Source: an uncultured Spirochaetota bacterium (GTDB lineage Bacteria > Spirochaetota > B62-G9 > CAZFGQ01). Taken from it: DNA of 64,000 nt. Within the stretch, counting starts at the first letter, position 1, and each line of letters opens with the position of its first letter. The notes beneath the pieces are model-generated. The model made no database searches and was not told the origin of the DNA. It saw nothing but the letters and a program-made list of their open reading frames with translations. Shown in pieces: positions 5,295 through 63,834 of the stretch. The DNA is taken from the NCBI GenBank assembly GCA_964518675.1, contig CAZFGQ010000004.1, positions 3,631 to 67,630 of the forward strand. The letters are read 5' to 3'. The translations under genes and the position numbers were made by a program.

Positions 5295-7382
5295 TTATTT
5301 TTCCTTTTCTGCCTGTTCTCGTCTCCGCATTGTTTCCTTTATCACATCTTCCGCTATTTTCCCACTTATTGGTTCATAGTGTGAGAATTCCATCTCGAAT
5401 GAGCCTGTACCTGATGTTAGTGATTTTAACTCTATTGCATATCTCAGTAATTCAGCCTGGGGAACTTTTGCCCTGATAACCTGTAACCCTCCACCCAGGC
5501 TATCCATACCGAGTACTCTTCCCCTTTTGGAGTTCAGATCACTCATTATGTCACCTGTATATTTCTCGTCAACATAAACAGTAAGGTCCATTATTGGTTC
5601 GAGAAGTGTGGGTTTTGCCTTTTCCATGGCAAGCTTAAAAGCCTGTCTCCCTGCTATTTTAAAAGCCAGTTCGGAGGAATCAACCTCGTGATAGCTACCG
5701 AAGACCAGGGAAACTTTTACATCAACTACAGGATATCCAGCTACTACTCCCTCCTCCATCGCTTCTCTAACTCCCTTTTCTACGCCGGGAATGTACTGTT
5801 TGGGGATTACTCCACCGACAATTTTATCTACAAACTCGAATCCTCCGCCTCTTGGCAGCGGTTCTATTTCCAGAAATACCTGCCCGTACTGTCCATGGCC
5901 ACCGGTCTGCTTTTTGTGCTTGTAATCGGCTTTTGCCGGAACGGTTATTGTTTCTCTATAGGCGATCAGAGGTGTGGATGTTACGTAATCGATACCGTAA
6001 TTTTCCTTTATCTTTGAAAGAATGATATTGAGGTGTAGCTCTCCCATGCCAGAGATGACGGTTTCTTTTGTTTCCTTGTTGTATTCTACTTTAAAAGAGA
6101 TGTCTTCCTCGGCTGCTCTCTGAAGAAGGGAGCTCAGTTTATCCTCTTCTTTCTTGTTCTTTGCCTTTATTGCTACACTGTAAACAGGATATGGGAGAAC
6201 CATCTCTGGGAATACGACAGGTCTGTCTGTGGAGGATAGTGTATCTCCTGTTTCTGCATATGGGAGTTTTGTGAGGGCTATAATATCACCTTCTTCAGCA
6301 TCCCTTTCAAGAGGATTCTGGGTTTTGCCAAAGGGTGTAAATATCTTTGAGAGCTTTTCTTTCTTATCTTTTGTTGTATTCATAACCTCCTGTTCTGCCT
6401 TTACTGTGCCTGAAAAAACCCTCACATATGAAATCTTGCCGGCAAATTGATCTATTACTGTTTTAAAAACCAGGCCTGTAAACGATTCATCTTTGCTGCA
6501 TTTTATCTCAACTTCTTTGCTTTTATCGTTGGCATTAAATGCCTTGATTGTTTCCCTGAAATTAGATGGAGGTGCAATTTCCTTTATTATTCTTGTAGCC
6601 TCTGTTATACCAATGTTCATTGCGCAGCTTCCCACAAGTACAGGTACAACCTCCCTCGATTCTATTCTTTTCCTGAGGCCCTCAACTATCTCTTCCTGTG
6701 TTAACTCTTCTCCTTCGAGGTATTTTTCTGTAAGCTCGTCTGTTGATTCCGCACTGATCTCTATAAGATTATTTCTCAGAGACTCAACCTCCGATTTGAG
6801 ATCGTCTGGTACTGGGGATTTTTTACCGGATTTTGATTTTTCTTCATAGATGTAAGCTTCCATACCAAGTATATCTACGACGCCTTTAAAATTATTTTCA
6901 GCACCTATGGGAAGCATTAATGGAACAACGTTTGTTTTGAGATTTTGTTTTATATTTTCAAGAGTATTGTTAAAGTCTGCATGCTCTTTATCCATCTTAT
7001 TAATAAAAATGATTACTGGCAGGTTGAGCTTTTTGGCTCTGTTCCAGTTTTTGGTGGTTTCGATCTCTATCCCTCTTACGGCATCCACAAGCATGAGAGC
7101 TGAATCGACTCCATAGAGACACGATACTACCTCTCCTGCAAAATCTGCAGAGCCAGGTGTATCGATGATAGTAAAGTTTGTGTCCTCATGTTTGAAGTTG
7201 AATATGGTCGATTTAATGGATATTTTCCTCTTTATTTCTTCCTCATCATAATCACTTAGCGATTTTCCATCATCCACCCGTCCCAGTGTATCAACTATCC
7301 CAAGATCATACAGGAGATGGTCAATGAATGATGTCTTGCCAACTGAAGTATGACCGACAAGAGCTAGGTTGATCTTCTTCAT
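5295..7382 (-). CDS. Elongation factor G paralog (EF-G2-like translational GTPase)
   Basis: 695 aa with full EF-G domain architecture. The G1 motif is divergent (GHTSVGKT instead of AHIDAGKT). The C-terminal GGHGQYG...[15 protein letters not shown] motifs are conserved. The canonical fusA is at 22860-24953. Confidence 0.85.
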   Translation of the reverse strand: MKKINLALVGHTSVGKTSFIDHLLYDLGIVDTLGRVDDGKSLSDYDEEEIKRKISIKSTIFNFKHEDTNFTIIDTPGSADFAGEVVSCLYGVDSALMLVDAVRGIEIETTKNWNRAKKLNLPVIIFINKMDKEHADFNNTLENIKQNLKTNVVPLMLPIGAENNFKGVVDILGMEAYIYEEKSKSGKKSPVPDDLKSEVESLRNNLIEISAESTDELTEKYLEGEELTQEEIVEGLRKRIESREVVPVLVGSCAMNIGITEATRIIKEIAPPSNFRETIKAFNANDKSKEVEIKCSKDESFTGLVFKTVIDQFAGKISYVRVFSGTVKAEQEVMNTTKDKKEKLSKIFTPFGKTQNPLERDAEEGDIIALTKLPYAETGDTLSSTDRPVVFPEMVLPYPVYSVAIKAKNKKEEDKLSSLLQRAAEEDISFKVEYNKETKETVISGMGELHLNIILSKIKENYGIDYVTSTPLIAYRETITVPAKADYKHKKQTGGHGQYGQVFLEIEPLPRGGGFEFVDKIVGGVIPKQYIPGVEKGVREAMEEGVVAGYPVVDVKVSLVFGSYHEVDSSELAFKIAGRQAFKLAMEKAKPTLLEPIMDLTVYVDEKYTGDIMSDLNSKRGRVLGMDSLGGGLQVIRAKVPQAELLRYAIELKSLTSGTGSFEMEFSHYEPISGKIAEDVIKETMRRREQAEKEK

Positions 7383-44561: not shown

Positions 44562-45485
44562 CTAAAGTGCATTTAAATCGGATCTCGTATAATAGTGTTT
44601 GAGCAATATGCCTTCCCCAGTAATATACTTCTTTTTTTCCCCATTGATCAAAATACTGACGGTTTTGACTTCATCAAATTCGAAGCACGTGAGAAGTATC
44701 TGTTTAAGTTGAATCTCGATTGCTTTTCTTCCAAGATAGTTATTCTCAAAATTTTCATTAAAATTAAGTGTGAGATGATTATTTTTTAGGGAAGCTGAGA
44801 TTAATTTAGTCCCCTGAGGAATAAATGTTTTAAGCCCTCTTTTTCTTTCTGCTTCTCCAGGACCTTTCAATAGTAGCTGTATGGTTCTTGTGATTGGTGA
44901 ATCTATATATTTGACAGTTTTTTTAATACCGGCAAGAGTCATCTCTCCCGTGGTAGGGTCGACTGTGACATAGTAGATGGTGGAGGTTCGAGTGTTAACT
45001 GCTTTGGATTCTGCTTTTGTTTTTCTCGTGGTTGTTTTTTTACTTTCTACCTTTTTGGCAGTGTCTAACCTTTCTGGTGTTTTTTGTGTTTCCAAACGCC
45101 TTTCTGAACTGGCTGAGGCTGTTTCTTTTTCCTCATTGGTCTTTTCTTCTTTTTTTATCTCCTCTTTTTGTTCAATTTTCTTTTCTTCGATTATTTGTTT
45201 CTCAGGAATTACTTTCTCAGATTTTTCTTCTTTTGTTTCCGGTTTGATTAACGTAATTTCTTCTTTTTTATCTTTTTCCTGAACTTCGTCCTCACTCTTT
45301 GTTTCTTCTTTGACGATGACTTTCAGCTTTTGCTCACCTTTTATAACTGAGACTAATGAATTGATTGTCTCTTTAAACGAACCTTTACCTCTATAGAGGA
45401 ATATTACTGCTATTATAAGCAGTATAAATATCCAGAAGAGACAACCTGTTCTTCTTATTTTTCTGGATTTGCCTCGCCTTGCCAT
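44562..45485 (-). CDS. GerMN-domain protein with N-terminal TM anchor and a K/E-rich low-complexity linker
   Basis: N-terminal TM (CLFWIFILLIIAVIFL). A 150-aa K/E/T-rich linker. The C-terminal region (IDSPITRTIQLLLKGPGEAERKRGLKTFIPQGTKLISASLKNNHLTLNFNENFE...VSILINGE) matches GerMN (sporulation/germination) domains. Confidence 0.65.
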   Translation of the reverse strand: MARRGKSRKIRRTGCLFWIFILLIIAVIFLYRGKGSFKETINSLVSVIKGEQKLKVIVKEETKSEDEVQEKDKKEEITLIKPETKEEKSEKVIPEKQIIEEKKIEQKEEIKKEEKTNEEKETASASSERRLETQKTPERLDTAKKVESKKTTTRKTKAESKAVNTRTSTIYYVTVDPTTGEMTLAGIKKTVKYIDSPITRTIQLLLKGPGEAERKRGLKTFIPQGTKLISASLKNNHLTLNFNENFENNYLGRKAIEIQLKQILLTCFEFDEVKTVSILINGEKKKYITGEGILLKHYYTRSDLNAL

Positions 45486-47032: not shown

Positions 47033-48340
47033 ATGTTTAATAATGTTAAAAAGTTTATAATCCTTTTTTTCCTGCTGTTTCCTGGTATCTGTTCGGCTGA
47101 TTTTCATGAAGTTTTTATCAACACAGAGCCAGTTGGTGCTGAGGTTAAACTGGATTATCAACCTCTTGGTAAAACCCCTGTTCGGGTTGTTCTTGAGCAG
47201 AAAAAGAAATATCTGATGGAGATAGAAGCAGAGGGATATCATCAGTTTAGCACAGAGAAGTTCCTTGGTGAAAAAAGAAGAGAGGTTCTCTTTTTTACTC
47301 TGAAACCAGAGAAGGTAAATATCGTAATCGAGCACAAAAATGAGGAATTATACATAAATGGCGTGACAGCAGGAAAAACACCTGTAATGATTACAGGTCT
47401 TCCCGATGGGTTTTATAGGATTGAATCGAATGAAAGTGGGATTCATCTATGGGTTGGAGATGGATGGGAAACAAGAAGAGAATCGCTTGTTGATTTGTTT
47501 TTCAGTTCTTCAATTCTTGGATTGTCTGTGACAGGATTTGTACTCAACGATGACAGAGACTATGAAAAAGAAATATTTTTTAAATCCTCGGCGCTGATAT
47601 TTGGAATAATCTCAGGCTATAATTTTATGAAGTTCCTCAAGTCACATTTTGAGTATCGATCACAGTTTAATGATTTCTATAATGTGGATGTAAAACCCTA
47701 TAATGTCAACGATGCGAAGAGTAATTTTGTAAAAGGGATGGAATTACTGGGCAACGGAAATTATAAAGAAGCAATACCCTATTTTAATTTAATATCTGAA
47801 CTCTATCCTGATTCTGAATACCTGCCAATTTCTATTTATGAAATAGGGTATTGTTACTACATGCTGGATGATCCTAAAGGAATTGAATATCTCAAGAGGT
47901 ATGTTGAAGAGTATCCACAGCCAGATCTTTTTCAATTAGCAGTAATGATGCTTCTGGAGTACCAGTTAAAGAGAAATCTTGTCTACGATGCTCTCGTAAC
48001 ATATCAAAAAGTTCGGCCGGTTATAATTCACGATTCGGATGGAGAAATAATTGTTTCTTACTATCGTATCCTGACGGATATATACAAACGAACGGGTAAG
48101 GTATATAACATTATAATCAGAGATATTCTGAGAGAGATAAATTATTTTTTGACCAATTATAAGGATGTACCGAAGTATCCGGATATACTCCTATTAAAGG
48201 GTAAACTTCATTATAAGTATCTTGATAAAGAGCTTGGTGAAAAAATCTTTAAGAGGATTCTTGATGAATATACTCACAGAGATGATTTAAAAAAGGAGAT
48301 CAGGGCTATCAGTGAATATGGAAAAGGTACTTTGCTTTGA
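47033..48340 (+). CDS. PEGA-domain protein with a C-terminal TPR-like region
   Basis: Signal peptide. Two PEGA-like repeats (INTEPVGAEVKLDYQPLGKTPV; LYINGVTAGKTPVMITGLPDGFYRIE). A TM segment, then a TPR-like helical C-terminus (NYKEAIPYFNLISELYPDSEY...). Confidence 0.65.
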   Translation: MFNNVKKFIILFFLLFPGICSADFHEVFINTEPVGAEVKLDYQPLGKTPVRVVLEQKKKYLMEIEAEGYHQFSTEKFLGEKRREVLFFTLKPEKVNIVIEHKNEELYINGVTAGKTPVMITGLPDGFYRIESNESGIHLWVGDGWETRRESLVDLFFSSSILGLSVTGFVLNDDRDYEKEIFFKSSALIFGIISGYNFMKFLKSHFEYRSQFNDFYNVDVKPYNVNDAKSNFVKGMELLGNGNYKEAIPYFNLISELYPDSEYLPISIYEIGYCYYMLDDPKGIEYLKRYVEEYPQPDLFQLAVMMLLEYQLKRNLVYDALVTYQKVRPVIIHDSDGEIIVSYYRILTDIYKRTGKVYNIIIRDILREINYFLTNYKDVPKYPDILLLKGKLHYKYLDKELGEKIFKRILDEYTHRDDLKKEIRAISEYGKGTLL

Positions 48341-50555
48341 ACTGAGGGGTTTTATCCTTGGGGTGGACTCCTCACAGGTAGAAAAGGTACTTGTTAATAA
48401 AAATCCCAGCAGGGAGAGCTTTACACTCGCTACAGGGGTTGAAATAAAGCCATTATGGGAATATATCCCACTTCCTGAAAGAGCAGAAAAAATATCAGAA
48501 AACATAATTTTCATTAAGGATCAGAAGGACTCTTACGGGTTTACTGTGGATAGGGTAAGGGGATATGTGAATGTAAGAGCATCTGAAAGGCAACACCAGA
48601 AAATGGAGCAGGGCCCCATAAGATACTATATAAAAATTGATGGGGATCTGATCCCGGTTCTGGATCTTGCTTTTATTACCAATAATAAAGGTTCTGTTGG
48701 AGAGGAACATATAAAAGAAATTGTTGAAATGAGCAGAGGCATTTCTCAGGATGGAGGGGAGGTTGAAGAGGAGCCTTCTCTTACTGTAAGCAAAGAGGAG
48801 GTGTTCAGAAGCATTGAAGAGGAGATAAAGAGAAGCAAGAAGGATTTTTCTGAAACGGTAATCAAAAGTGAAAGAAAAGGTTTTCTTTTTCCCGTTTTGA
48901 TAAATGCGGGAATAGTTCTTTTGTTTGGAGCTGGTCTATTATACTTCATTATGACAAACAGAGAAAGCCTATCAATGGCCTATATGGGGGGTGTTGTTAC
49001 TGGAGTTGAGGAAGAGGTTATCAAGGAGATTAAGAGGAGATCTGAGGAAGAGTTAAGTCAGCAGAGGAAAAAGCTTGAGGAAGCAAAAAGGAGACTTGAA
49101 GCTCTTCGAAGGGAAAAAGAGTTTTTCGAAAAGAATCAGGATAAAATTTTAGCAGAGAAGGAGAAAAAACTCAGGGAAGAGTATAACAGGAAACTTGAGG
49201 AAATAAGAAAGAGACTTGAAGCGAGTGGTGTTGCAAATGTTGAGGAGGCATTCCAGGCAGAGAAACAGAAGCTTTACCAGGAATACCTTGCTTCTCTTCA
49301 GGCGACCAGGAGCGAGATTGAAAAGGTAAAAAGGCAGTATGAAGAGGCACTGAAACAGAAAGAGGCCGAGATAAAAAAGGAGGTGAATATTTACTCCCGG
49401 AGATTGGCAGAGATGGAAGCCCAACTTGAGTCAGAACAGAGTAAATTAAGGAAGGTTGAAGAACAGTTCAAGAGTGTTGCAGCAAAGCAAAAAGAATACG
49501 AAGCTTTTAGGAACCAGCTAAATCTGATTTATGATAGAGCTCTTAAATATCTGGAAAAAGGAAATACTTCTAGAGGACTTGAAACACTGCGAAATGCAAT
49601 AAGCATCCTCAATGAGGCAGAAAAAAGAGGGCTCACAGATCCCTTTGGCCTCAGTGTTGAAAAGGAACTTATAAACAGGATGATATATATTACTGAAAGA
49701 GAAAGGGCCAAGGTTGATGTAAACGAACTTGCCCGCAAAACATTGCTTTCAGCGAATACACTGGAAGCTGCCGGTAAAGAGAGGGAGGCTCTTTATAAAT
49801 ATTTTACCGTTTACACAATAGCAAAAGACCAGAATTTGCGTGAGAGAGCTTATAAAAAGGCCCAGGATATAATGAATAGAATATATGCTGAAATCTCTTC
49901 AGAAGAAAAAGCCAGATTGGAGTCGGAAGCAAGCGACCTGATCAAAAAGGCCGGAAAGATGATCGATAGTGGAGATTATGATAGGGCTGTAGAGCTCCTG
50001 TATGCTTCTCTATCGACACTAACTGACCCTGCTATTGCAAAGGATGTCTTGAATAAAATAGCCTATATAAAAGAAATGAAGCTGGAGGAAGAGCAACAGA
50101 GAGCAGTGCAGGAACGGGAGAAAAATGCCAGTGTTTTGATGGCAAAGGCAGATGAGCTTTATAAAAAGGGATTTTTTAGCGAAGCAATTGATTACTACAG
50201 AGAGATTGCCACAAACTTCAGCGGTACGAGGAGTGCCGATATTGCTATTGATAGACTTATAAGTATTAGCGAAAAAATGAAGGAATATAAGGTAGCATCA
50301 AGGGGAAGAATAGAGGTTACAGGTAAGGATACCTCGGTGGTTATTCAAAAGCTTGGTACCTCGCAGGTTATAATTGGTCTCGGAGGAAATGATGGTGTGA
50401 AATCCGGAGACACACTTCAGGTCTACCGTAAGATCGGGTCCGAGTTTCAATTTGTATGTACTTTAAGGGTTTTTGAGGTGTATCCAACCAGCTCCAAAGC
50501 GTCTGTAACCTATTTTGAGCGGAGCGTTAAGGTAGGGGATATAGTTACTTATTAG
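48312..50555 (+). CDS. CheW-like-domain protein with a single TM helix, ~450 aa of coiled coil/TPR-like repeats, and a small C-terminal beta domain
   Basis: The N-terminal 130 aa match the CheW fold (LCFELRGFILGVDSSQVEKVL...IIFIKDQKDSYGFTVDRVRGYVNV...IPVLDLAFI). TM helix (GFLFPVLINAGIVLLFGAGLLYFI). Long EK-rich heptad region. The C-terminus is GDTLQVYRKIGSEFQFVCTLRVFEVYPTSSKASVTYFERSVKVGDIV. Overlaps the PEGA gene by 29 nt. Confidence 0.7.
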   Translation: MNMEKVLCFELRGFILGVDSSQVEKVLVNKNPSRESFTLATGVEIKPLWEYIPLPERAEKISENIIFIKDQKDSYGFTVDRVRGYVNVRASERQHQKMEQGPIRYYIKIDGDLIPVLDLAFITNNKGSVGEEHIKEIVEMSRGISQDGGEVEEEPSLTVSKEEVFRSIEEEIKRSKKDFSETVIKSERKGFLFPVLINAGIVLLFGAGLLYFIMTNRESLSMAYMGGVVTGVEEEVIKEIKRRSEEELSQQRKKLEEAKRRLEALRREKEFFEKNQDKILAEKEKKLREEYNRKLEEIRKRLEASGVANVEEAFQAEKQKLYQEYLASLQATRSEIEKVKRQYEEALKQKEAEIKKEVNIYSRRLAEMEAQLESEQSKLRKVEEQFKSVAAKQKEYEAFRNQLNLIYDRALKYLEKGNTSRGLETLRNAISILNEAEKRGLTDPFGLSVEKELINRMIYITERERAKVDVNELARKTLLSANTLEAAGKEREALYKYFTVYTIAKDQNLRERAYKKAQDIMNRIYAEISSEEKARLESEASDLIKKAGKMIDSGDYDRAVELLYASLSTLTDPAIAKDVLNKIAYIKEMKLEEEQQRAVQEREKNASVLMAKADELYKKGFFSEAIDYYREIATNFSGTRSADIAIDRLISISEKMKEYKVASRGRIEVTGKDTSVVIQKLGTSQVIIGLGGNDGVKSGDTLQVYRKIGSEFQFVCTLRVFEVYPTSSKASVTYFERSVKVGDIVTY

Positions 50556-54485: not shown

Positions 54486-56018
54486 ATGAAAAATTGCTGT
54501 ATTGTTAATCTGCTGCTTCCGGGAGAATGGTGGGTTCGAGAAATCTCGGGAGTAAGCCCGGTAAAAGTTATTCTGGAAAAGAGCAAGAAATTATTCAGGG
54601 CTGATGAAATACTGTGCCTTATTGATGATAAAATACCGGATGATTTGCTTTCCATTGTGCGTTCTTGCATTTCGGGAGAAAATATTGTCTCTGTCGAGAA
54701 TAGAAAATTTTCGACAGTGATCAAAAAACTGTTCAATGAATTGAGTAAGGTTAAAAATTGTGAAAATCTTGTATTTGTCCATGGAGATTCCCCTCTTATA
54801 GACCTGGACCTTATTTCTCGAATGCTTGCAATACATAGTGATCAACTTGCCGAATACACCCATGGCGAGGGATATCCAGCCGGGTTCCTTCCGGAAATCC
54901 TCAGGATAGAGATTATTCCGAGATTATTAAAACTTTCTGAGAGCTTTGATCCGGATTTTGACAGATCAGCTATTTTTAAGGTTATTTCAAAGGAGGTAAA
55001 TTCGTTTGATATAGAGACCCTTTTTGCTGATGAGGATCTAAAACTTAGAAGAATTGAGGCTATAACATCCAGCTGGAGAGAACGTTTGATTGTGGAAAAT
55101 GTTATTAGATCTACGGGGAAGAAGGAGCTTGATATCTCTTATAAAGAGTTTTGTGAGCTCATCAGGAGAGAACCTTTGATTTTAAGACCCACTCCCACGT
55201 ACTGTCAGGTAGAGATTACGAGTCTTCGAAATGATGAATGTATATATTACCCCATTGAATTTATGGAGAGACGACCGGGCCAGATGAAACTTGACGATTA
55301 TCTTAGAATTCTTGATAAGCTTGTCACGATAAATCCAGAGATGTATATAGAGATATCCTATCTCGGTGAGCCGTTACTGCATCCAAACTTTCAGACAATT
55401 ATTAAGAAAACTCTCGAAAATCCTTGGGTGAAGTTGATTGTTCTTACAAATGGCCTGCTCTGGACTCCGGGGATGTCTGAGGATATTGTTAAAAATTATG
55501 GTGAGAATGATAGATTGTTTATAATATTTGAACTTGATGCTGTAGAAGAGAAAACCTATGCAAAAATAAGGCGGGGAGACCTCTTTAAGGTTGAAAGGAA
55601 CATCAGGTATCTTCATTCTCTTGGTTTTAAGAATCTCTTTGTTCAGTTTACAAGAATTGATCTAAATGAGGATGAGATGATCAGGTTTTACCAGAGCTGG
55701 GAAAAGGAGGGCGTAAAGCCTGTAATTCAGAAGTTTAACAGTTTTTCGGGATTATTACCGGGGTTCTCGGATTATGATATTACCCCACTTGAGCGCTGGC
55801 CATGTTATCACCTGGAAAGGGAGATGGTTATCTTTTACAATGGAGATGTCCCGAAATGCAAACAGGACATCAATTTGCGGTATCCTCTGGGAAATCTTAT
55901 TACCGACTCTGTTGCAGATGTATGGAAAAATGGGAATAAATATTATCTTGAACATGTAGCAGAAAAGTACGATGATCTGTGTTCTGAGTGTGACGAGTAC
56001 TTTACCTTTAATTTTTAG
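54486..56018 (+). CDS. Fusion protein: N-terminal nucleotidyltransferase-like region plus C-terminal radical-SAM-like/SPASM-like domain with a degenerate Cys motif
   Basis: N-terminal region has LVFVHGDSPLIDLDLISRM (DxP-type NTP-transferase motif) but no glycine-rich loop. C-terminal region has GEPLL (ISYLGEPLLHP) and TNG (LIVLTNGLLW) radical-SAM motifs. The cluster loop reads PTPTYCQVEITSLRNDECIYY, only two Cys instead of CxxxCxxC. Cys-rich tail: CYHLE...PKCKQD...CSECDEY. Confidence 0.6.
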   Translation: MKNCCIVNLLLPGEWWVREISGVSPVKVILEKSKKLFRADEILCLIDDKIPDDLLSIVRSCISGENIVSVENRKFSTVIKKLFNELSKVKNCENLVFVHGDSPLIDLDLISRMLAIHSDQLAEYTHGEGYPAGFLPEILRIEIIPRLLKLSESFDPDFDRSAIFKVISKEVNSFDIETLFADEDLKLRRIEAITSSWRERLIVENVIRSTGKKELDISYKEFCELIRREPLILRPTPTYCQVEITSLRNDECIYYPIEFMERRPGQMKLDDYLRILDKLVTINPEMYIEISYLGEPLLHPNFQTIIKKTLENPWVKLIVLTNGLLWTPGMSEDIVKNYGENDRLFIIFELDAVEEKTYAKIRRGDLFKVERNIRYLHSLGFKNLFVQFTRIDLNEDEMIRFYQSWEKEGVKPVIQKFNSFSGLLPGFSDYDITPLERWPCYHLEREMVIFYNGDVPKCKQDINLRYPLGNLITDSVADVWKNGNKYYLEHVAEKYDDLCSECDEYFTFNF

Positions 56019-56178
56019 AGCTTCCGATGTAGGTTGCTGTGCCCTTTATTTGTCCCGGTACAATCTGACGGTGTGAAGTCATCGGTTATTGGTAATAAGA
56101 TGTTTTTTGTAATATGATTTGGGTCTATCTTATTATGGTTTCAGGAGCTGTGTTTAAAATAATAATTTTTAAAATATT

Positions 56179-56868
56179 GTGATGGGCAGATCTATAGTTA
56201 TTCTACAGGCAAGATTAGCCTCTAAAAGACTACCTCTAAAATTGTTACTTCCACTAAGTGGTTATTCCATTCTGGAACATATCATTATGAGGATTAAAAA
56301 GGCAAGTAGGCCGGATGGATTCGTGATTGCGACGACTGAAGATACTGCAAAGGCCATAAGGCACATTGCGGACTTCTATGATGTCAGAATTATTACAGGT
56401 GATGAAAAAGATGTTCTTGGGCGTTTTGTCAAGGCTGCAATCGATGCACAGGCAGAGCATATTGTGAGAACAACAGGTGATAATCCTCTGGTTTCAATAA
56501 AATATATAGATAGAACCCTTGAACTTCACCTTGAATCCGGTGCCGATCTCACTACCTATCCCCTCCTTCCTCTGGGCACAGGAGTTGAGGTTATAAAAAG
56601 AGAAGCACTTATAAAGGCACACAGGGAGGCTGAGGAGGATTTTGAAAGAGAGCATATTACTCAGTACATCTACAGGAATGAGAATGATTTTAAAATAATA
56701 AGGGGGGTTCCGGATTCTCCCTATCTTTTTCCTGAACTTAGGCTTACCGTTGATAATGAGATGGACTATCGATTTTTAAAGCATATCTACTCCAATCTTT
56801 TTAAAGGTAGTGTGCTGAATCTTAAAGAGGTTATCTCATTTGTTCTTAAAACCGAGAATTATTCATAA
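56179..56868 (+). CDS. Acylneuraminate/CMP-sugar cytidylyltransferase family protein (SpsF/PseF-like)
   Basis: SIVILQARLASKRLPLKLLLPLSGYSILEHIIMRI (N-terminal nucleotide loop) and VRTTGDNPLV (DxP motif), as in SpsF/NeuA/PseF-type enzymes. Confidence 0.8.
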   Translation: MMGRSIVILQARLASKRLPLKLLLPLSGYSILEHIIMRIKKASRPDGFVIATTEDTAKAIRHIADFYDVRIITGDEKDVLGRFVKAAIDAQAEHIVRTTGDNPLVSIKYIDRTLELHLESGADLTTYPLLPLGTGVEVIKREALIKAHREAEEDFEREHITQYIYRNENDFKIIRGVPDSPYLFPELRLTVDNEMDYRFLKHIYSNLFKGSVLNLKEVISFVLKTENYS

Positions 56869-56965
56869 GGGATATGGTATTTTCTCCGGACATGTCAGAT
56901 TAATTGAAGAGTTACTTTTGCTCTATTTAAAGAGTATTTTATTGGTAAAGATTTTCGGATGGTAA

Positions 56966-58750
56966 GTGTTTGATATGAATAAACTCAATGTTCTTTTTTA
57001 TACAGTTTGCGGCGGAAAGTTTGGAATGGGGCATTTTATCAGATGTCTGGCTCTTGCCCTCAAAGGAAATAATTTTATTGAAGGCTTCTTTTATCTTAGG
57101 AAATCAGGTGGTTCTCGGAAAAAACTTGCCGGGGGAAGGATTCCGCTTCCGAATAACTCAAGATATATTAATGAAATTGATGATTTGGAAGATGTTAATC
57201 TGGTGGTTTCAGATGTAAGGAATACATCCCCAAAGGAGATGAGAAAACTGACGAAAATTGCTCCTGTTATTTCGTTTGATGACTGGGGAGCTGGCATGGA
57301 CTATGCTCATGTTACCATTTATCCTCTTCCTACACTCCGTGAGATAAGCGGAAATCTTTTTGGACTGGAATACCTGATTCTTAACCCTGCGGTTACAGCT
57401 ACTAGTCCTTTATCAATTAAGGATAAGAAAGGTGTGCTTGTATGTTTTGGCGGTTCAGATCCATATAATCTGAGCCCAGTTGTAGCCAGGGCCCTCAATC
57501 AAATTGGTATAAGGCCTTTAGTCGTTGCTGGACCTTTTTCTGAGATTAACAAGGATGAGTTCGATGGTCAGCTTGTAAGAGATTTTTCAATTCTGCCTGA
57601 GTTGTTGAACAAGTCCAGGTTAGTAATTACCAGCTTTGGAATAACTTTATTTGAAGCTATGTACCTTCAGACTCCAGTTATATTGTTCAACAACACTGCA
57701 TATCATAACAAACTTGCAGAAAAGTTTGATGTTATTAGCCTTGGTTATAGAAACAGAAAAATCATTCCAAAATTACCAAAATTACTTGAGAGAACCATTG
57801 GGGGCGAAGATGTTCTTATTGAAAGAGCGGAGATGAACAAAAAACTCATTGACGGGAAAGCTGCTGAGAGAATACTGGAGCTGATGAAGAAAACGGCGTT
57901 TAGCGGAAGGAGAAGGTGTCTTTTTAACCATCAGAAATACTATTCGGTAAAAAGAGGAACGAAGAATACATTATTTAGATGTCGGAAATGTGGGGATCTT
58001 TTTAATTTTTTGTTTGATTCAGAGGGAGATAATTATGACTCTCCTTCCTACTTTCTTTCAAATTACAGAGCACAGTATGGAAAGACGTACATCGCCGATA
58101 GAGAAAACATAGAGAGGATGGCTGGGTTGAGACTTGAAAGGATAGAAAATATTTTGGGCAGACATGGAAAATTGCTGGATGTCGGCAGTGCCCTTGGTTT
58201 CCTTGTGAAAGTTGCGAGAGATAGAGGATGGGATGCTGAAGGAGTTGAAATTTCAGCCTATGCAGTTGAGTGGTCAAGGCGGAGACTTGGAATTAATGTC
58301 CACAGAGGCTCTTTTTTCGATGTGGAGCTGGATAAAGATGGTTACGATGTTATAACATTTTTTTATGTTCTTGAACATTTTAAGGAACTTGATAGGGTAA
58401 TTGAAAAAGTAAAGAGTGTTCTGAAAAGTGGTGGAATTTTAGCTATAGCAATGCCCAACCGTGGCGGTATAAGCTTCAGGTTTAATCGCAGGGATTATCT
58501 CAGGGATCATCCAAATGATCATTATATTGATACTACACACCGTAATCTGAGAAAATACCTGAGGAATTATGGATTTGGAAAGTTCTATACTATCTCTACT
58601 GGAATCCATCCTGAGAGATTTTTTTCTATTTTGAGATTGAATAAGCTGGGATTGAATGAAAAAAGAGAACTGTTGTACCGAATATATTGTACAGCAGCGA
58701 AGAAATTAAATCTTGGGGATACATTTGAGCTCTATGCAGTTAAAAATTAA
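56966..58750 (+). CDS. Fusion of a PseG/SpsG-like UDP-sugar hydrolase domain with a class-I SAM-dependent methyltransferase domain
   Basis: N-terminal ~310 aa: NVLFYTVCGGKFGMGHFIRCLALA... (PseG-like G-x-GH-x-x-R) and a GT-B C-lobe. Linker has a CRKCGDLF zinc-ribbon-like element. C-terminal ~220 aa: LLDVGSALGFLV...DVITFFYVLEHF...GGILAIAMPN (Rossmann methyltransferase motifs I-III). Confidence 0.7.
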   Translation: MFDMNKLNVLFYTVCGGKFGMGHFIRCLALALKGNNFIEGFFYLRKSGGSRKKLAGGRIPLPNNSRYINEIDDLEDVNLVVSDVRNTSPKEMRKLTKIAPVISFDDWGAGMDYAHVTIYPLPTLREISGNLFGLEYLILNPAVTATSPLSIKDKKGVLVCFGGSDPYNLSPVVARALNQIGIRPLVVAGPFSEINKDEFDGQLVRDFSILPELLNKSRLVITSFGITLFEAMYLQTPVILFNNTAYHNKLAEKFDVISLGYRNRKIIPKLPKLLERTIGGEDVLIERAEMNKKLIDGKAAERILELMKKTAFSGRRRCLFNHQKYYSVKRGTKNTLFRCRKCGDLFNFLFDSEGDNYDSPSYFLSNYRAQYGKTYIADRENIERMAGLRLERIENILGRHGKLLDVGSALGFLVKVARDRGWDAEGVEISAYAVEWSRRRLGINVHRGSFFDVELDKDGYDVITFFYVLEHFKELDRVIEKVKSVLKSGGILAIAMPNRGGISFRFNRRDYLRDHPNDHYIDTTHRNLRKYLRNYGFGKFYTISTGIHPERFFSILRLNKLGLNEKRELLYRIYCTAAKKLNLGDTFELYAVKN

Positions 58751-59927
58751 AGTTCTTATTAAAATACTTCTAATAATAGCAGTACTTATTACAGGATATT
58801 TGTCGTCTGTCCAGGATGCTTTTTCTGCTGGGACACCTTCAGAAACAGGTGCAGCTAAAACCGGGTATGTGAATATTATCCAGGTTATTGATTATTTTAA
58901 TCTTGATTATGAATTTGATGAATTGGCAGGTGTTTTAGTTTTAAAGAAAGGTACTCAGACTTTAATCCTTCATGCTGGTAGCAAAGCATATTATTACGGT
59001 GACAGAACCTACTTTTCCAGCTTACCTGTACGTATTGAAACTGGCAGGATCTTTGTGAGCAGTGAAATTGTTGATTTCATTATTAAAAGGTTTGTTAGGA
59101 AGAGAGTAAAATGGGAGGTTGTAAATGGCAATTTTGTTGTTAGTGGAAGGACTCTGAGAGAAAAAGAAGTGGTGTCAGGGAGAAAGGGTACAGAATTAAC
59201 CACTCCCAGAAGGAGAATAGATATAATAATTATTGATCCAGGCCATGGAGGTAAAGATCCGGGTGGTATTGGCTATGGCGGAATCAAAGAAAAAGACATT
59301 GTTCTCGATATTTCCAAGTTATTGCAGAAAGAGCTGAGGAGGAGCTCCAATAAAAAGGTAATAATGACAAGAAAAGAGGATGTTTTTGTTTCACTTGAAG
59401 AAAGAAGCAAAATTGCCAATGGTAATAACAATGGGGGAAATAGTATTTTTGTCAGTATTCATGCAAATGTGGCTTTGGACAAGTCATCTAAAGGATTTGA
59501 GAGCTACTATTTATCTCTCCATCCGTTTGGAGAAAATGCAAGGGATGTTTCAGAGATTGAAAATGCTGTTATTACATATGAGGAGAAACCGTATGCTGAT
59601 TATCTCAAGGAAGTTTTGAATCGAGTTGTGGATGTTGAATATAGAAAAGAGAGCATGAAGCTGGCCAGCTATATAAATCAGGGTATTGCTCAGATGGTAA
59701 ACCAGGCAATGCCAAATAGGGGTGTGAAAGGTGCATTCTTTTATGTTTTGAAAGAATCCAAAATGGTAGCTGTACTGGTTGAAATTGGGTTTATAACAAA
59801 TAAAAAGGAGGCAGAATTGCTTAAAAGCAAGGAGTATCAAACAAAGCTTGCAAAGGGAATAGCTTCTGGTATAATAAGTTTTATAGTTGAATTTGAAAGA
59901 ACAAATGGTTTTACCGAAGGGTATTAA
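58713..59927 (+). CDS. N-acetylmuramoyl-L-alanine amidase (Amidase_3, AmiC-like) with an N-terminal AMIN-like domain
   Basis: Signal/TM. Amidase_3 catalytic region IIIDPGHGGKDPGGIG...VSIHANV...GFESYY...RGVKGAFFYVLKESKMVAVLVEIGFITNKKE. Likely true start at the ATG at 58734. Confidence 0.85.
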   Translation: MGIHLSSMQLKIKVLIKILLIIAVLITGYLSSVQDAFSAGTPSETGAAKTGYVNIIQVIDYFNLDYEFDELAGVLVLKKGTQTLILHAGSKAYYYGDRTYFSSLPVRIETGRIFVSSEIVDFIIKRFVRKRVKWEVVNGNFVVSGRTLREKEVVSGRKGTELTTPRRRIDIIIIDPGHGGKDPGGIGYGGIKEKDIVLDISKLLQKELRRSSNKKVIMTRKEDVFVSLEERSKIANGNNNGGNSIFVSIHANVALDKSSKGFESYYLSLHPFGENARDVSEIENAVITYEEKPYADYLKEVLNRVVDVEYRKESMKLASYINQGIAQMVNQAMPNRGVKGAFFYVLKESKMVAVLVEIGFITNKKEAELLKSKEYQTKLAKGIASGIISFIVEFERTNGFTEGY

Positions 59928-59928
59928 T

Positions 59929-60420
59929 ATGAAATATCGTAGTGCTACGTCTGGATTTAATGCAAAATTATATGTTTTCATGATTTTTTCATTTGTTATT
60001 ACTCTGATATTTCTTATATATATCGAAAATAAAAAATATGTTCGAATTAATATTTATCTTCCCCATATTAACTCAGCAGAGTTATCAAAAGAGGTCCGTT
60101 TTATTCCTAAAAGTGGTTCGAGAATTGAGAAGATCAGATGGATAATGGGCGAACTTATCTCGGGACCTCTCAATTCTGAACATCTCAGGGTCTTTAATCC
60201 TGATACCAAAATAAGGGATATATTTATTGAAAAGGGAGTTATGTACATAAATTTTGACTGGATGATAGTTGAGGCCTTTCATAAGAATTATTCCCAGGTA
60301 GTCAGCTCAATAAAGAAAACAATAGCCGATAATTTTTCTGGAATAAGAGAGGTGAGGCTTCTTATTGATGGGGTTGAACCCATTCTGTACAAAGGACCTA
60401 TTGTATTGAAGCTCAGGTGA
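59929..60420 (+). CDS. GerMN-domain protein downstream of the amidase
   Basis: Start ATG overlaps the amidase stop (TAATATG). N-terminal TM (LYVFMIFSFVITLIFLIYI). GerMN-like region (EVRFIPKSGSRIEKIRWIMGELISGP...IREVRLLIDGVEPI). The track ORF starts 42 nt earlier at 59887. Confidence 0.65.
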   Translation: MKYRSATSGFNAKLYVFMIFSFVITLIFLIYIENKKYVRINIYLPHINSAELSKEVRFIPKSGSRIEKIRWIMGELISGPLNSEHLRVFNPDTKIRDIFIEKGVMYINFDWMIVEAFHKNYSQVVSSIKKTIADNFSGIREVRLLIDGVEPILYKGPIVLKLR

Positions 60421-60822
60421 TTTGTCACCAAGGAGCTTTATAATTTTACCAAGGATATATTAGTATAGATAGGCCGCAGGTTATTTCTCTCCTATTTTTT
60501 TAATAAGGCGAACTTCGAGTTTTCAATTTGAAATGTGAATTATTGGATACAAATTGATACAGGATGGAGAAATCAATAAATATTTTTTAAGTTGTTCGTA
60601 ATTCGCCGGCACTGCAACATTTTTAATTCTATTATGCATTCAGATTTCTATATTTCAGAAATTTCCACATTCATTTTAATATTTATTAAAGATACGCTAA
60701 TGGATTTCCGATAAGAAAAGAGAACCATATTTATAATCTCAGCCCTGAAAATTTTTTTGACAGGGCTAGATTAATGAATATACTTATAATTAATAAAGAT
60801 TTGAGCGAAAGGAGCCTGAACA

Positions 60823-61767
60823 ATGAAAAAGGTCTTATTAGTGATTGTTTCTCTAATAATTCTACCTCTATCAGGGGTTGTATTTGCGCAGGAACAAAAG
60901 ATCCAGGGAGGACCACAGGTTTTAATTGATTTTTCAAATCTTAGCGATACTGAGATTGACTTTTCTAAATTTCCGGGTGGTATCGCCGAGGGAATAACCG
61001 AATTGAAGGTGGATCTCAGTATTGAAAACTGGATGGTTAAACTCGCCCCCTCTTCTGCATCCATAAAAAATAGGGTCCTTTCATACTGTAAACCGGTTAA
61101 GAGCAGAAAGATGAATGCTGATGTACTCGGAGTAAGGGTACATTTTCCGACAGCACCATTTAATTCCTGGGCAAAGATTCTGCCTCCGTTTGAAATCCCA
61201 TTTTATGAGGACAAAGAAGGGGAGGAAGGTCAGGGAACAAAGTTCATCAATAAAGGTGTTCTGAGAAATGTGGGTACGATCAAATCCATCTCTGTAAGGG
61301 TAACCGGAAGAAACTTTCCACATGGGCTTTCCATCTCTCTAAAGGATTCGAGAGATACTGTCAGGGAGATGTTCCTCGGTTATCTTGATTTTGATGGTTG
61401 GAGAACCCTTACATGGAAGAATCCTAATTACATCTCTGATGTGAAGCAGAGAGATCTCCGGAAGATCCCTCTCTATCCACAATTAGAGCCATCAGTTAAG
61501 TTTGATTCATTCACGATTTACAGGCATGGCAGCCAGATAGGTGGAGATTTTGTGACATACATAAAGGATGTTCAGATGGTTTATGACCTTGCCATCCTCG
61601 AAACGGAAAGAGATATTGATGATGAGGCTGTATGGGGAATATTAAAGGCCAGAAAGGAAGCCAAGAGAGCGGCTGAGATCAGAAGGCTGGGTATGTTACA
61701 GTTACTGAGACAGCAGGAACTCATTAAGATGCAGCATGCAGTAACAGAGGCGCCTCCAGCTCAGTAA
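60823..61767 (+). CDS. flaA: Flagellar filament outer-layer (sheath) protein FlaA homologue
   Basis: Signal peptide (LSGVVFAQEQ). From memory the sequence aligns along its length with spirochaete FlaA: VLGVRVHFPTAPFNSWAKILPPFEIPFYE; GVLRNVGTIKSISVRVTGRNFPHGLSISLKD; FLGYLDFDGWRTLTWKNPNYISDVKQRDLR; GGDFVTYIKDVQMVYD. Confidence 0.7.
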   Translation: MKKVLLVIVSLIILPLSGVVFAQEQKIQGGPQVLIDFSNLSDTEIDFSKFPGGIAEGITELKVDLSIENWMVKLAPSSASIKNRVLSYCKPVKSRKMNADVLGVRVHFPTAPFNSWAKILPPFEIPFYEDKEGEEGQGTKFINKGVLRNVGTIKSISVRVTGRNFPHGLSISLKDSRDTVREMFLGYLDFDGWRTLTWKNPNYISDVKQRDLRKIPLYPQLEPSVKFDSFTIYRHGSQIGGDFVTYIKDVQMVYDLAILETERDIDDEAVWGILKARKEAKRAAEIRRLGMLQLLRQQELIKMQHAVTEAPPAQ

Positions 61768-61915
61768 TATAAAGTATCGTGATAGGGAAAAACCCCTTCA
61801 TCGGAGTTAGAGAGTGTACGATTCTCTTCCCGATGGAGGGGTTTTTATTAGGAATTATAAAAAATTATTTACGATACGATTCAAAATTGTTAAATTAGTC
61901 GCAGAAATTAATGGT

Positions 61916-61988
<73 letters not shown>

Positions 61989-61997
61989 AAATTATCT

Positions 61998-62070
61998 GCC
62001 ACCCTAGCTCAGCCGGTAGAGCAACGCATTCGTAATGCGTGGGTTATCGGTTCGACTCCGATGGGTGGCT
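61998..62070 (+). tRNA. tRNA-Thr (anticodon CGU)
   Basis: Acceptor GCCACCC/GGGTGGC, anticodon stem ACGCA/TGCGT with loop TTCGTAA, T-arm ATCGG-TTCGACT-CCGAT. Lies 9 nt after tRNA-Phe. Confidence 0.85.
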
Positions 62071-62196
62071 ATTTTATTAAATTTTATCCACAATTACTCT
62101 GCTCTGTTTATCTTCTTGCTTCTCAACACATACAGCTAATTAACTTGATTTTGGAAAAAAATATAATTATCTTTGGAACGAAAAAAATCCTAGTGA

Positions 62197-63834
<1,638 letters not shown>

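Follow-up and report, generated by a model that had tools for sequence, protein, structure and literature searches.

Towards the end of the 64,000-nt stretch of DNA analysed here (the window; contig CAZFGQ010000004.1, from an uncultured Spirochaetota bacterium) lies an open reading frame (ORF) on the forward strand at 60823-61767, whose 314-aa product is an orthologue of the major sheath protein of the periplasmic flagellum. The gene is a bona fide flaA, a vertically inherited member of a well-known family. It is preceded on the same strand by a sigma-28 (FliA)-type promoter-like element (60687-60714), an inverted repeat or hairpin (60734-60773), a sigma-70-type promoter (60757-60784) and a Shine-Dalgarno sequence (60808-60814), and is followed by an intrinsic terminator (61789-61846). 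Taken as a whole, the locus very probably comprises a monocistronic flaA encoding the major sheath protein of an uncultured Spirochaetota bacterium, equipped with a sigma-70-type and a conserved sigma-28-type motif and closed by a strong terminator. The family membership, lineage, synteny and motif conservation on which this reading draws were observed directly. Both the gene and its position are as expected, and flaA matters little beyond annotation; it does confirm the contig as that of a spirochaete with periplasmic-flagellum hardware.

The first-pass annotation of this DNA, made from the letters alone, had proposed a secreted FlaA homologue on the basis of peptides resembling Treponema/Leptospira FlaA, and all three of the peptides quoted (VLGVRVHFPTAPFNSWAKILPPFEIPFYE, NFPHGLSISLKD and FLGYLDFDGWRTLTWKNPNYISDVKQRDLR) are found in the translation of the ORF at 60823-61767. 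The profile check that it suggested bears the proposal out: the 314-aa protein matched the Pfam FlaA family (PF04620) with 208.8 bits (gathering cutoff 25; E 1.2e-61) over positions 24-229 of the 230-position profile, and the best sequence matches in the PDB are spirochaete flagellar sheath proteins. The first 22 residues, MKKVLLVIVSLIILPLSGVVFA (60823-60888, forward strand), were read from the translation as a signal peptide, with a predicted signal peptidase I (SPase I) cut before QEQ. On inspection of the sequence, MKKVLLVIVSLIILPLSGVVFA|QEQ shows a basic n-region, then a hydrophobic h-region and a c-region of small residues, with no lipobox cysteine, thus suggesting a signal peptide of the type I Sec class. 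The motif FAQ(E/Q) stands at the same position in the close orthologues, and in the alignment of homologues A22 is conserved at a level of 90% or more. We therefore infer that the precursor is exported by Sec and that its signal peptide is cut by SPase I, as the literature describes for FlaA, a protein that leaves by Sec and loses its N-terminus by cleavage (PMC9481697).

An alignment of 45 homologous sequences served both for the analysis of conservation and for an AlphaFold 2 model of the protein, which has a mean predicted local distance difference test score (pLDDT) of 80.4 and a predicted template-modelling score (pTM) of 0.74, and in which a beta-sandwich precedes a long C-terminal helix (residues 273-309). 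The top match of this model in a Foldseek search of the PDB was Leptospira FlaA1 (9cyn; E 3.9e-13, template-modelling score normalised to the target 0.65), in a copy of the database older than the Treponema FlaA entries, and the remaining matches were generic beta-sandwiches resembling carbohydrate-binding modules.

The terminator (61789-61846, forward strand) consists of a long GC-rich hairpin between an A-run and UUUUUAUU, and begins 22 nt past the flaA stop codon. The RNA fold of 61765-61860 has a free energy of -39.3 kcal/mol (z -6.10), with none of 200 shuffles as stable (0/200), and a terminator scan matched the inner part of the hairpin; the strength of this terminator is the reason for regarding flaA as monocistronic.

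The sigma-70-type promoter (60757-60784, forward strand) has a -35 box TTGACA at 60757-60762, a 16-nt spacer and a -10 box TATACT at 60779-60784, thereby agreeing with the consensus at 11 of 12 positions. The pattern TTGACA-N16-18-TATAMT occurs once in the 64-kb window, where 0.05 matches would be expected, and TTGACA-N16-TATA(A/C)T was found in 16 of the 17 distinct close orthologues (loci compared are cited below by L numbers), the exception (L005) having a variant -10. When 10 of the flaA upstream regions were aligned, TTTGACA and TG-N2-TATAnT proved invariant, as did the AAGGAG of the Shine-Dalgarno sequence AAAGGAG (60808-60814, forward strand), which lies 8 nt 5′ of the ATG. The first-pass annotation had paired TTGACA with a TATAAT hexamer; both hexamers are present, 22 nt apart (60757-60762 and 60785-60790), but the wrong -10 box had been chosen, since the conserved one is TATACT at 60779-60784. 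The promoter with a 22-nt spacer was accordingly rejected in favour of TTGACA-16 nt-TATACT, on grounds of both consensus score and conservation among the orthologues.

The sigma-28-type element, which had been overlooked in the first-pass annotation, lies approximately 45 nt 5′ of the sigma-70-type promoter on the forward strand and is made up of TAAAG (60687-60691), 16 nt and CCGATAA (60708-60714), fitting the FliA consensus TAAA-N15/16-(G)CCGATAA. Each of the 17 distinct close orthologues has an equivalent upstream of flaA as TAAAG-N16-CCGATA(A/G), save for a 15-nt spacer in L028 and the variant TCAAG...GCCGATG in L006, and among the 10 upstream regions that were aligned TAAAG and CCGATA do not vary whilst the spacer between them has diverged. 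In 243 kb of clade loci, searched on both strands, 15 of 17 matches to the sigma-28-type pattern lie directly 5′ of flaA on the sense strand. The complete genome CP070841.1 likewise has both the sigma-28-type and the sigma-70-type motif upstream of flaA, and the conserved tandem arrangement of the two motifs appears, from these comparisons, to be a feature of the clade. Promoter type before flaA varies within the Spirochaetota: L046 (upstream of 5743) has the sigma-28-type motif only, the clade of the window has both, and the distant Spirochaetia flaA loci, whose FlaA is 43-52% identical (L012-L021, L041, L043, L049), have only TTGACA-N16/17-TATAAT. In the literature, flaB2 is described as having a sigma-28 promoter with the -10 CCGATAA (PMC9481697), and a sigma-28 motif has been reported upstream of Leptospira interrogans flaA1 from a map of transcription start sites (PMC12655853), so that a sigma-28-type promoter at flaA has a precedent.

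Between the sigma-28-type element and the gene, and spanning the -35 box of the sigma-70-type promoter, lies the inverted repeat at 60734-60773 (forward strand), in which TAATCT-c-AGCCCTG and CAGGGCT-AGATTA flank a 13-nt loop containing the TTGA of the -35 box. A stem-loop AGCCCTG-N13-CAGGGCT had been noted before and does exist; however, its arms are at 60741-60747 and 60761-60767, some 8 nt to the left of the 60749-60775 originally given, and they form the core of a 13-bp interrupted stem at 60734-60773. A 62-nt segment containing the hairpin folds with -17.4 kcal/mol (z = -4.25 relative to dinucleotide-shuffled sequences). Hairpins in the same register, built from other arm sequences, are found in L007 (GGGGCAT/ATGCCCC), L009, L037 (10 bp) and L028, and in L005, L036 and L031 a hairpin lies just 5′ of the -35 box. 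Of 16 orthologue folds, 4 reached z <= -2, the mean z being -1.0, and Rfam had no match in the hairpin region; the hairpin was for these reasons rejected as a generally conserved RNA element. Since most orthologue folds are no stabler than shuffles, it is best regarded as real but not generally conserved. If the sigma-28-type promoter is active, the hairpin would lie at about +14 to +53 of the sigma-28 transcript, and of that transcript only.

We tentatively propose, at a little under even chances, that flaA is controlled by two promoters in tandem, a FliA (sigma-28) promoter upstream and a sigma-70 promoter downstream, the sigma-28 transcript alone carrying a 5′ hairpin that possibly modulates its stability. 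A competing explanation, which we consider rather unlikely, is that the sigma-70-type promoter drives flaA alone, with TAAAG-N16-CCGATA being, for example, bound by some protein, left over as a remnant, or active as promoter for a short non-coding transcript ending at the hairpin. Such a view accords with the dependence of flaA on sigma-70 in Treponema denticola, in which four ORFs upstream share its transcript, and in Brachyspira hyodysenteriae (PMC9481697), and with the sigma-70-type motif being the only one in the distant Spirochaetia orthologues; the sigma-28-type match in a single window is not significant by itself, and in some orthologues there is a hairpin 3′ of the element at which a short transcript could end. 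However, both half-sites fit the sigma-28 consensus and their spacing has been kept (16 nt, once 15) despite the divergence of the spacer, the element hardly occurs outside the flaA upstream region within the 243 kb of clade DNA, and the hairpin in the window is without a U-tract, is not conserved and coincides with no Rfam family, to which the precedent of the Leptospira flaA1 motif may be added. Under the tandem arrangement that we prefer, the sigma-70 promoter would give basal expression of flaA, whilst the sigma-28 promoter would tie synthesis of the sheath to the late flagellar (FliA) regulon. If true, this would be an arrangement undescribed in the cultured models, in which flaA is under sigma-70 only (T. 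denticola and B. hyodysenteriae) or has a sigma-28 motif (Leptospira flaA1), and the tandem motifs lend themselves to a modest hypothesis, open to testing, of how synthesis of sheath and core might be coordinated.

The closest structurally characterised relative of the window protein is found in T. denticola. The top PDB sequence matches were the 349-aa and 326-aa chains named ‘Flagellar filament outer layer protein’ in 9PIM/10PL (E 7e-54, query residues 43-303), of which 10PL is the sheathed filament of T. denticola (PMC13439194), with FlaA (TDE1712) as its major sheath protein. The two proteins are 43% identical over 261 aligned residues and share PF04620 as well as a long layout of signal peptide, beta-sandwich and C-terminal helical extension, and a sigma-70-type promoter is involved at both genes. 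They differ in length, the window protein being shorter by 35 aa and having loop deletions around residues 97-100 and 130-140, and in that T. denticola flaA is transcribed together with the four upstream ORFs from a distal promoter, whereas flaA in the window has its own directly upstream pair of promoter motifs, including the sigma-28-type element.

Published cryo-electron microscopy (cryo-EM) of the T. denticola filament describes longitudinal sheath contacts of D293, D220 and D271 with R104, R292 and R306, lateral contacts of K109, K280 and R239 with E328, E342 and E345, and contacts between FlaA and FlaB1 at S86 and K317. These residues were transferred to the window protein through a HMMER alignment, 12 of them falling inside the aligned region. 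Ten of the 12 are identical (S77, R95, K96, D191, R210, D242, R263, D264, R277 and E299 in the numbering of the window protein; binomial P = 0.005 against the overall identity of 43%), and among them R210, D242, R277 and E299 are invariant across the 45 homologues. The two that differ are K317, which is replaced by R288, and K280, which is replaced by Q251. By homology to T. denticola we infer that the precursor would leave the cytoplasm via Sec and be cut after Ala22, and that the beta-sandwich and C-terminal helix of the mature protein would polymerise round a core of FlaB flagellins, held by longitudinal and lateral salt bridges as in the T. denticola cryo-EM structure. The resulting sheath would thicken and stiffen the filament, so that its rotation deforms the cell body. 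That the lattice-forming residues of the 2026 T. denticola filament structure have been kept in a deep, uncultured lineage from marine sediment supports the generality of this sheath architecture.

Several PF04620 proteins are often present in one spirochaete, and the remainder of this genome lies outside the DNA that was seen; the window protein might on that account be a minor or specialised sheath paralogue, comparable to FlaA1 and FlaA2 of T. denticola, which occupy the concave side, or to FlaA1 and FlaA2 of Leptospira. We regard this as highly improbable. Its length, C-terminal helical extension and similarity fit the major FlaA (E 7e-54) and not the minor T. denticola proteins FlaA1 (236 aa) and FlaA2 (246 aa), which gave weak matches with E-values of 0.37 and 1e-5, respectively. 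An identity with the Leptospira types was rejected on equivalog scores of 26.9 bits against a cutoff of 500 (NF047845) and 42.6 against 440 (NF047846). As the minor proteins and the Leptospira models match so much worse, the window protein can be assigned as orthologous to FlaA of the long, major-sheath type, in line with the conservation of the major-sheath lattice residues and with the position of the gene, which sits at the conserved place after the amidase gene. The Leptospira FlaA1 and FlaA2 proteins (NF047845/NF047846; PDB 9cyn and 10lk) do belong to the same Pfam family and have the same fold, but they are distant, at approximately 20% identity, and function within an asymmetric sheath which also contains FcpA/FcpB. 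Signs of partners of this kind did not emerge here, where no search was directed at them.

The distribution of relatives places the gene firmly among the spirochaetes. The exact FlaA of the window is also encoded on a 70.9-kb ENA metagenome contig (ERZ27248458 k141_202168), one JGI contig and one Logan contig. The search for FlaA homologues gave 1026, the named ones all being metagenome-assembled genomes (MAGs) labelled ‘Spirochaetes/Spirochaetota bacterium’, such as DG_61 (75% identity); FlaA of cultured Spirochaeta and Alkalispirochaeta is approximately 47% identical to that of the window. In a collection of species-representative genomes all 18 of the FlaA-related loci (18/18) belong to Spirochaetota MAGs, in agreement with the spirochaete-like lineage suggested in the first-pass annotation, and the nearest named relatives are Spirochaetes bacterium DG_61, B62_G9 and HyVt-370, MAGs from sediments and vents.

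Within the close clade, in which FlaA is 68-82% identical, xseA on the opposite strand is followed by the order radical-SAM/SPASM, CTP_transf_3, Epimerase_2/methyltransferase, Amidase_3, Germane, flaA, groEL, FapA_N and FapA. The complete 3.53-Mb genome CP070841.1 (GCA_020342115.1) has the upstream gene order in common with these loci, with Mrp-type antiporter genes and not groEL 3′ of flaA, and the upstream block from radical-SAM to Amidase_3, followed by flaA, has been retained even in Spirochaetia MAGs with FlaA only 43-51% identical. In the MAGs of the close clade, the GroEL encoded next to flaA has an identity of 85-91%. The orthologues of the clade (DG_61, B62_G9, HyVt-370 and CP070841.1) share with the window the tandem sigma-28/sigma-70-type motifs and the signal-peptide cleavage motif, and differ from it only at the level of species, the window having a longer intergenic stretch (approximately 265 nt) upstream of the sigma-28-type element as well as a hairpin across the -35 box that is particularly stable. 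Horizontal acquisition of a sheath component, which had been offered earlier as an alternative to vertical descent, finds no support in this syntenic neighbourhood, kept across Spirochaetota MAGs including distant Spirochaetia, or in the taxonomy of the relatives. That a non-spirochaete has gained a FlaA-domain protein for a role other than the periplasmic flagellum is therefore extremely improbable, for although no other flagellar structural gene lies within the window, every related genome locus is from a Spirochaetota MAG, gene order is kept on both sides in the clade and upstream also in the distant Spirochaetia, the adjacent GroEL shares 85-91% identity among those MAGs, and the window contains both a groEL without groES and two EF-G paralogues, a combination typical of spirochaetes.

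Against the overall interpretation of the locus stand several considerations. The activity of both promoters is predicted from sequence only, and the single match to TAAA-N15-17-CCGATA in the window compares with an expected 0.47, so that it is not significant alone. The replacement of K280 by Q251 affects a lateral contact, and two other lateral-contact residues, the acidic E342 and E345 at the extreme C-terminus, fall outside the aligned region; the lattice formed by the window protein may thus differ in detail from that of T. denticola. The part of this genome that was covered, approximately 71 kb, contains neither a flagellin (FlaB) gene nor fliA nor any basal-body gene: a tblastn search with a Treponema pallidum FlaB probe gave no match in the window and 51 loci, and Pfam, run on 29 more ORFs from the window and its flanks, revealed no flagellar gene besides FlaA and two FapA-family genes. 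A flagellum in this organism is consequently proposed from homology, the adjacent FapA genes and the conservation of FlaA. It is nevertheless very likely that flagellin and flagellar apparatus genes are present elsewhere in the genome, given that across the clade FlaA is still 68-82% identical and has kept its lattice-contact residues.

The two FapA-family genes lie next to each other 3′ of groEL, beyond the end of the window (L001 13187-15681), and encode a 221-aa protein with FapA_N only and a 595-aa protein with FapA_N and FapA; the pair is kept in most of the clade loci that reach past groEL. FapA has been reported to be co-conserved with the sigma-28 flagellar sub-module (PMC11607428). 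Among the other large ORFs, Pfam recognised a trpE-like gene, two EF-G genes, an HtrA-like gene, transporters, ApbE and similar families, whilst a 747-aa ORF at 48312-50552 had sub-threshold matches only (FlgT_C with 22 bits against 27, CheW with 20.9 against 23.5). The two EF-G paralogues, at 5295-7382 on the reverse strand and 22860-24953 on the forward strand, are full-length, each with all five EF-G domains by Pfam, as an earlier remark on an EF-G2 paralogue had implied. A pair of EF-G1 and EF-G2 is known in spirochaetes, and the two genes in the window are consistent with this.

Directly 5′ of flaA is a block of genes (54486-60420) for a radical-SAM/SPASM protein, a CTP_transf_3 protein resembling nonulosonate cytidylyltransferases, an Epimerase_2 protein and a methyltransferase, an Amidase_3 protein and a Germane-domain protein. 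The block is also present at L005, L007, L010, L012-L018, L021 and L052, the distant Spirochaetia MAGs having it without the Germane gene. The Amidase_3 gene (58713-59927, forward strand) is syntenic with flaA both in the clade and in the distant Spirochaetia MAGs, and the Germane-domain gene (59887-60420, forward strand) is syntenic with it in the clade, both genes having been assigned by Pfam. By the coordinates of the longest ORFs these two genes share 41 nt, an overlap suggestive of translational coupling. Another Germane-domain protein, of 306 aa, is encoded 15 kb upstream at 44562-45485 on the reverse strand. The FlaB flagellins of T. denticola bear a nonulosonic-acid glycan, and given this glycan and the co-transcription of flaA with four upstream ORFs in that species, the sugar genes upstream of flaA may, by analogy, be flagellin-glycan genes. 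The link between nonulosonate-type sugar genes and flaA, being conserved, may point to the genes for flagellin glycosylation in spirochaetes.

Downstream of the flaA terminator are genes for tRNA-Phe (61915-61989) and tRNA-Thr (61998-62070), followed by groEL. A public call of a 73-aa ORF at 61814-62035 (L001 10992-11213) starts inside the terminator and crosses tRNA-Phe into tRNA-Thr, and is almost certainly spurious. Between the tRNA genes and groEL no groES was found (region 62070-63834), and no CIRCE operator was detected before groEL with up to 3 mismatches allowed. The start of groEL is likely to be the ATG at 62212 and not the GTG at 62206, in agreement with a 540-aa public call, and a promoter-like site, TTAACT-N16-TATAAT, precedes the gene at 62140-62167.

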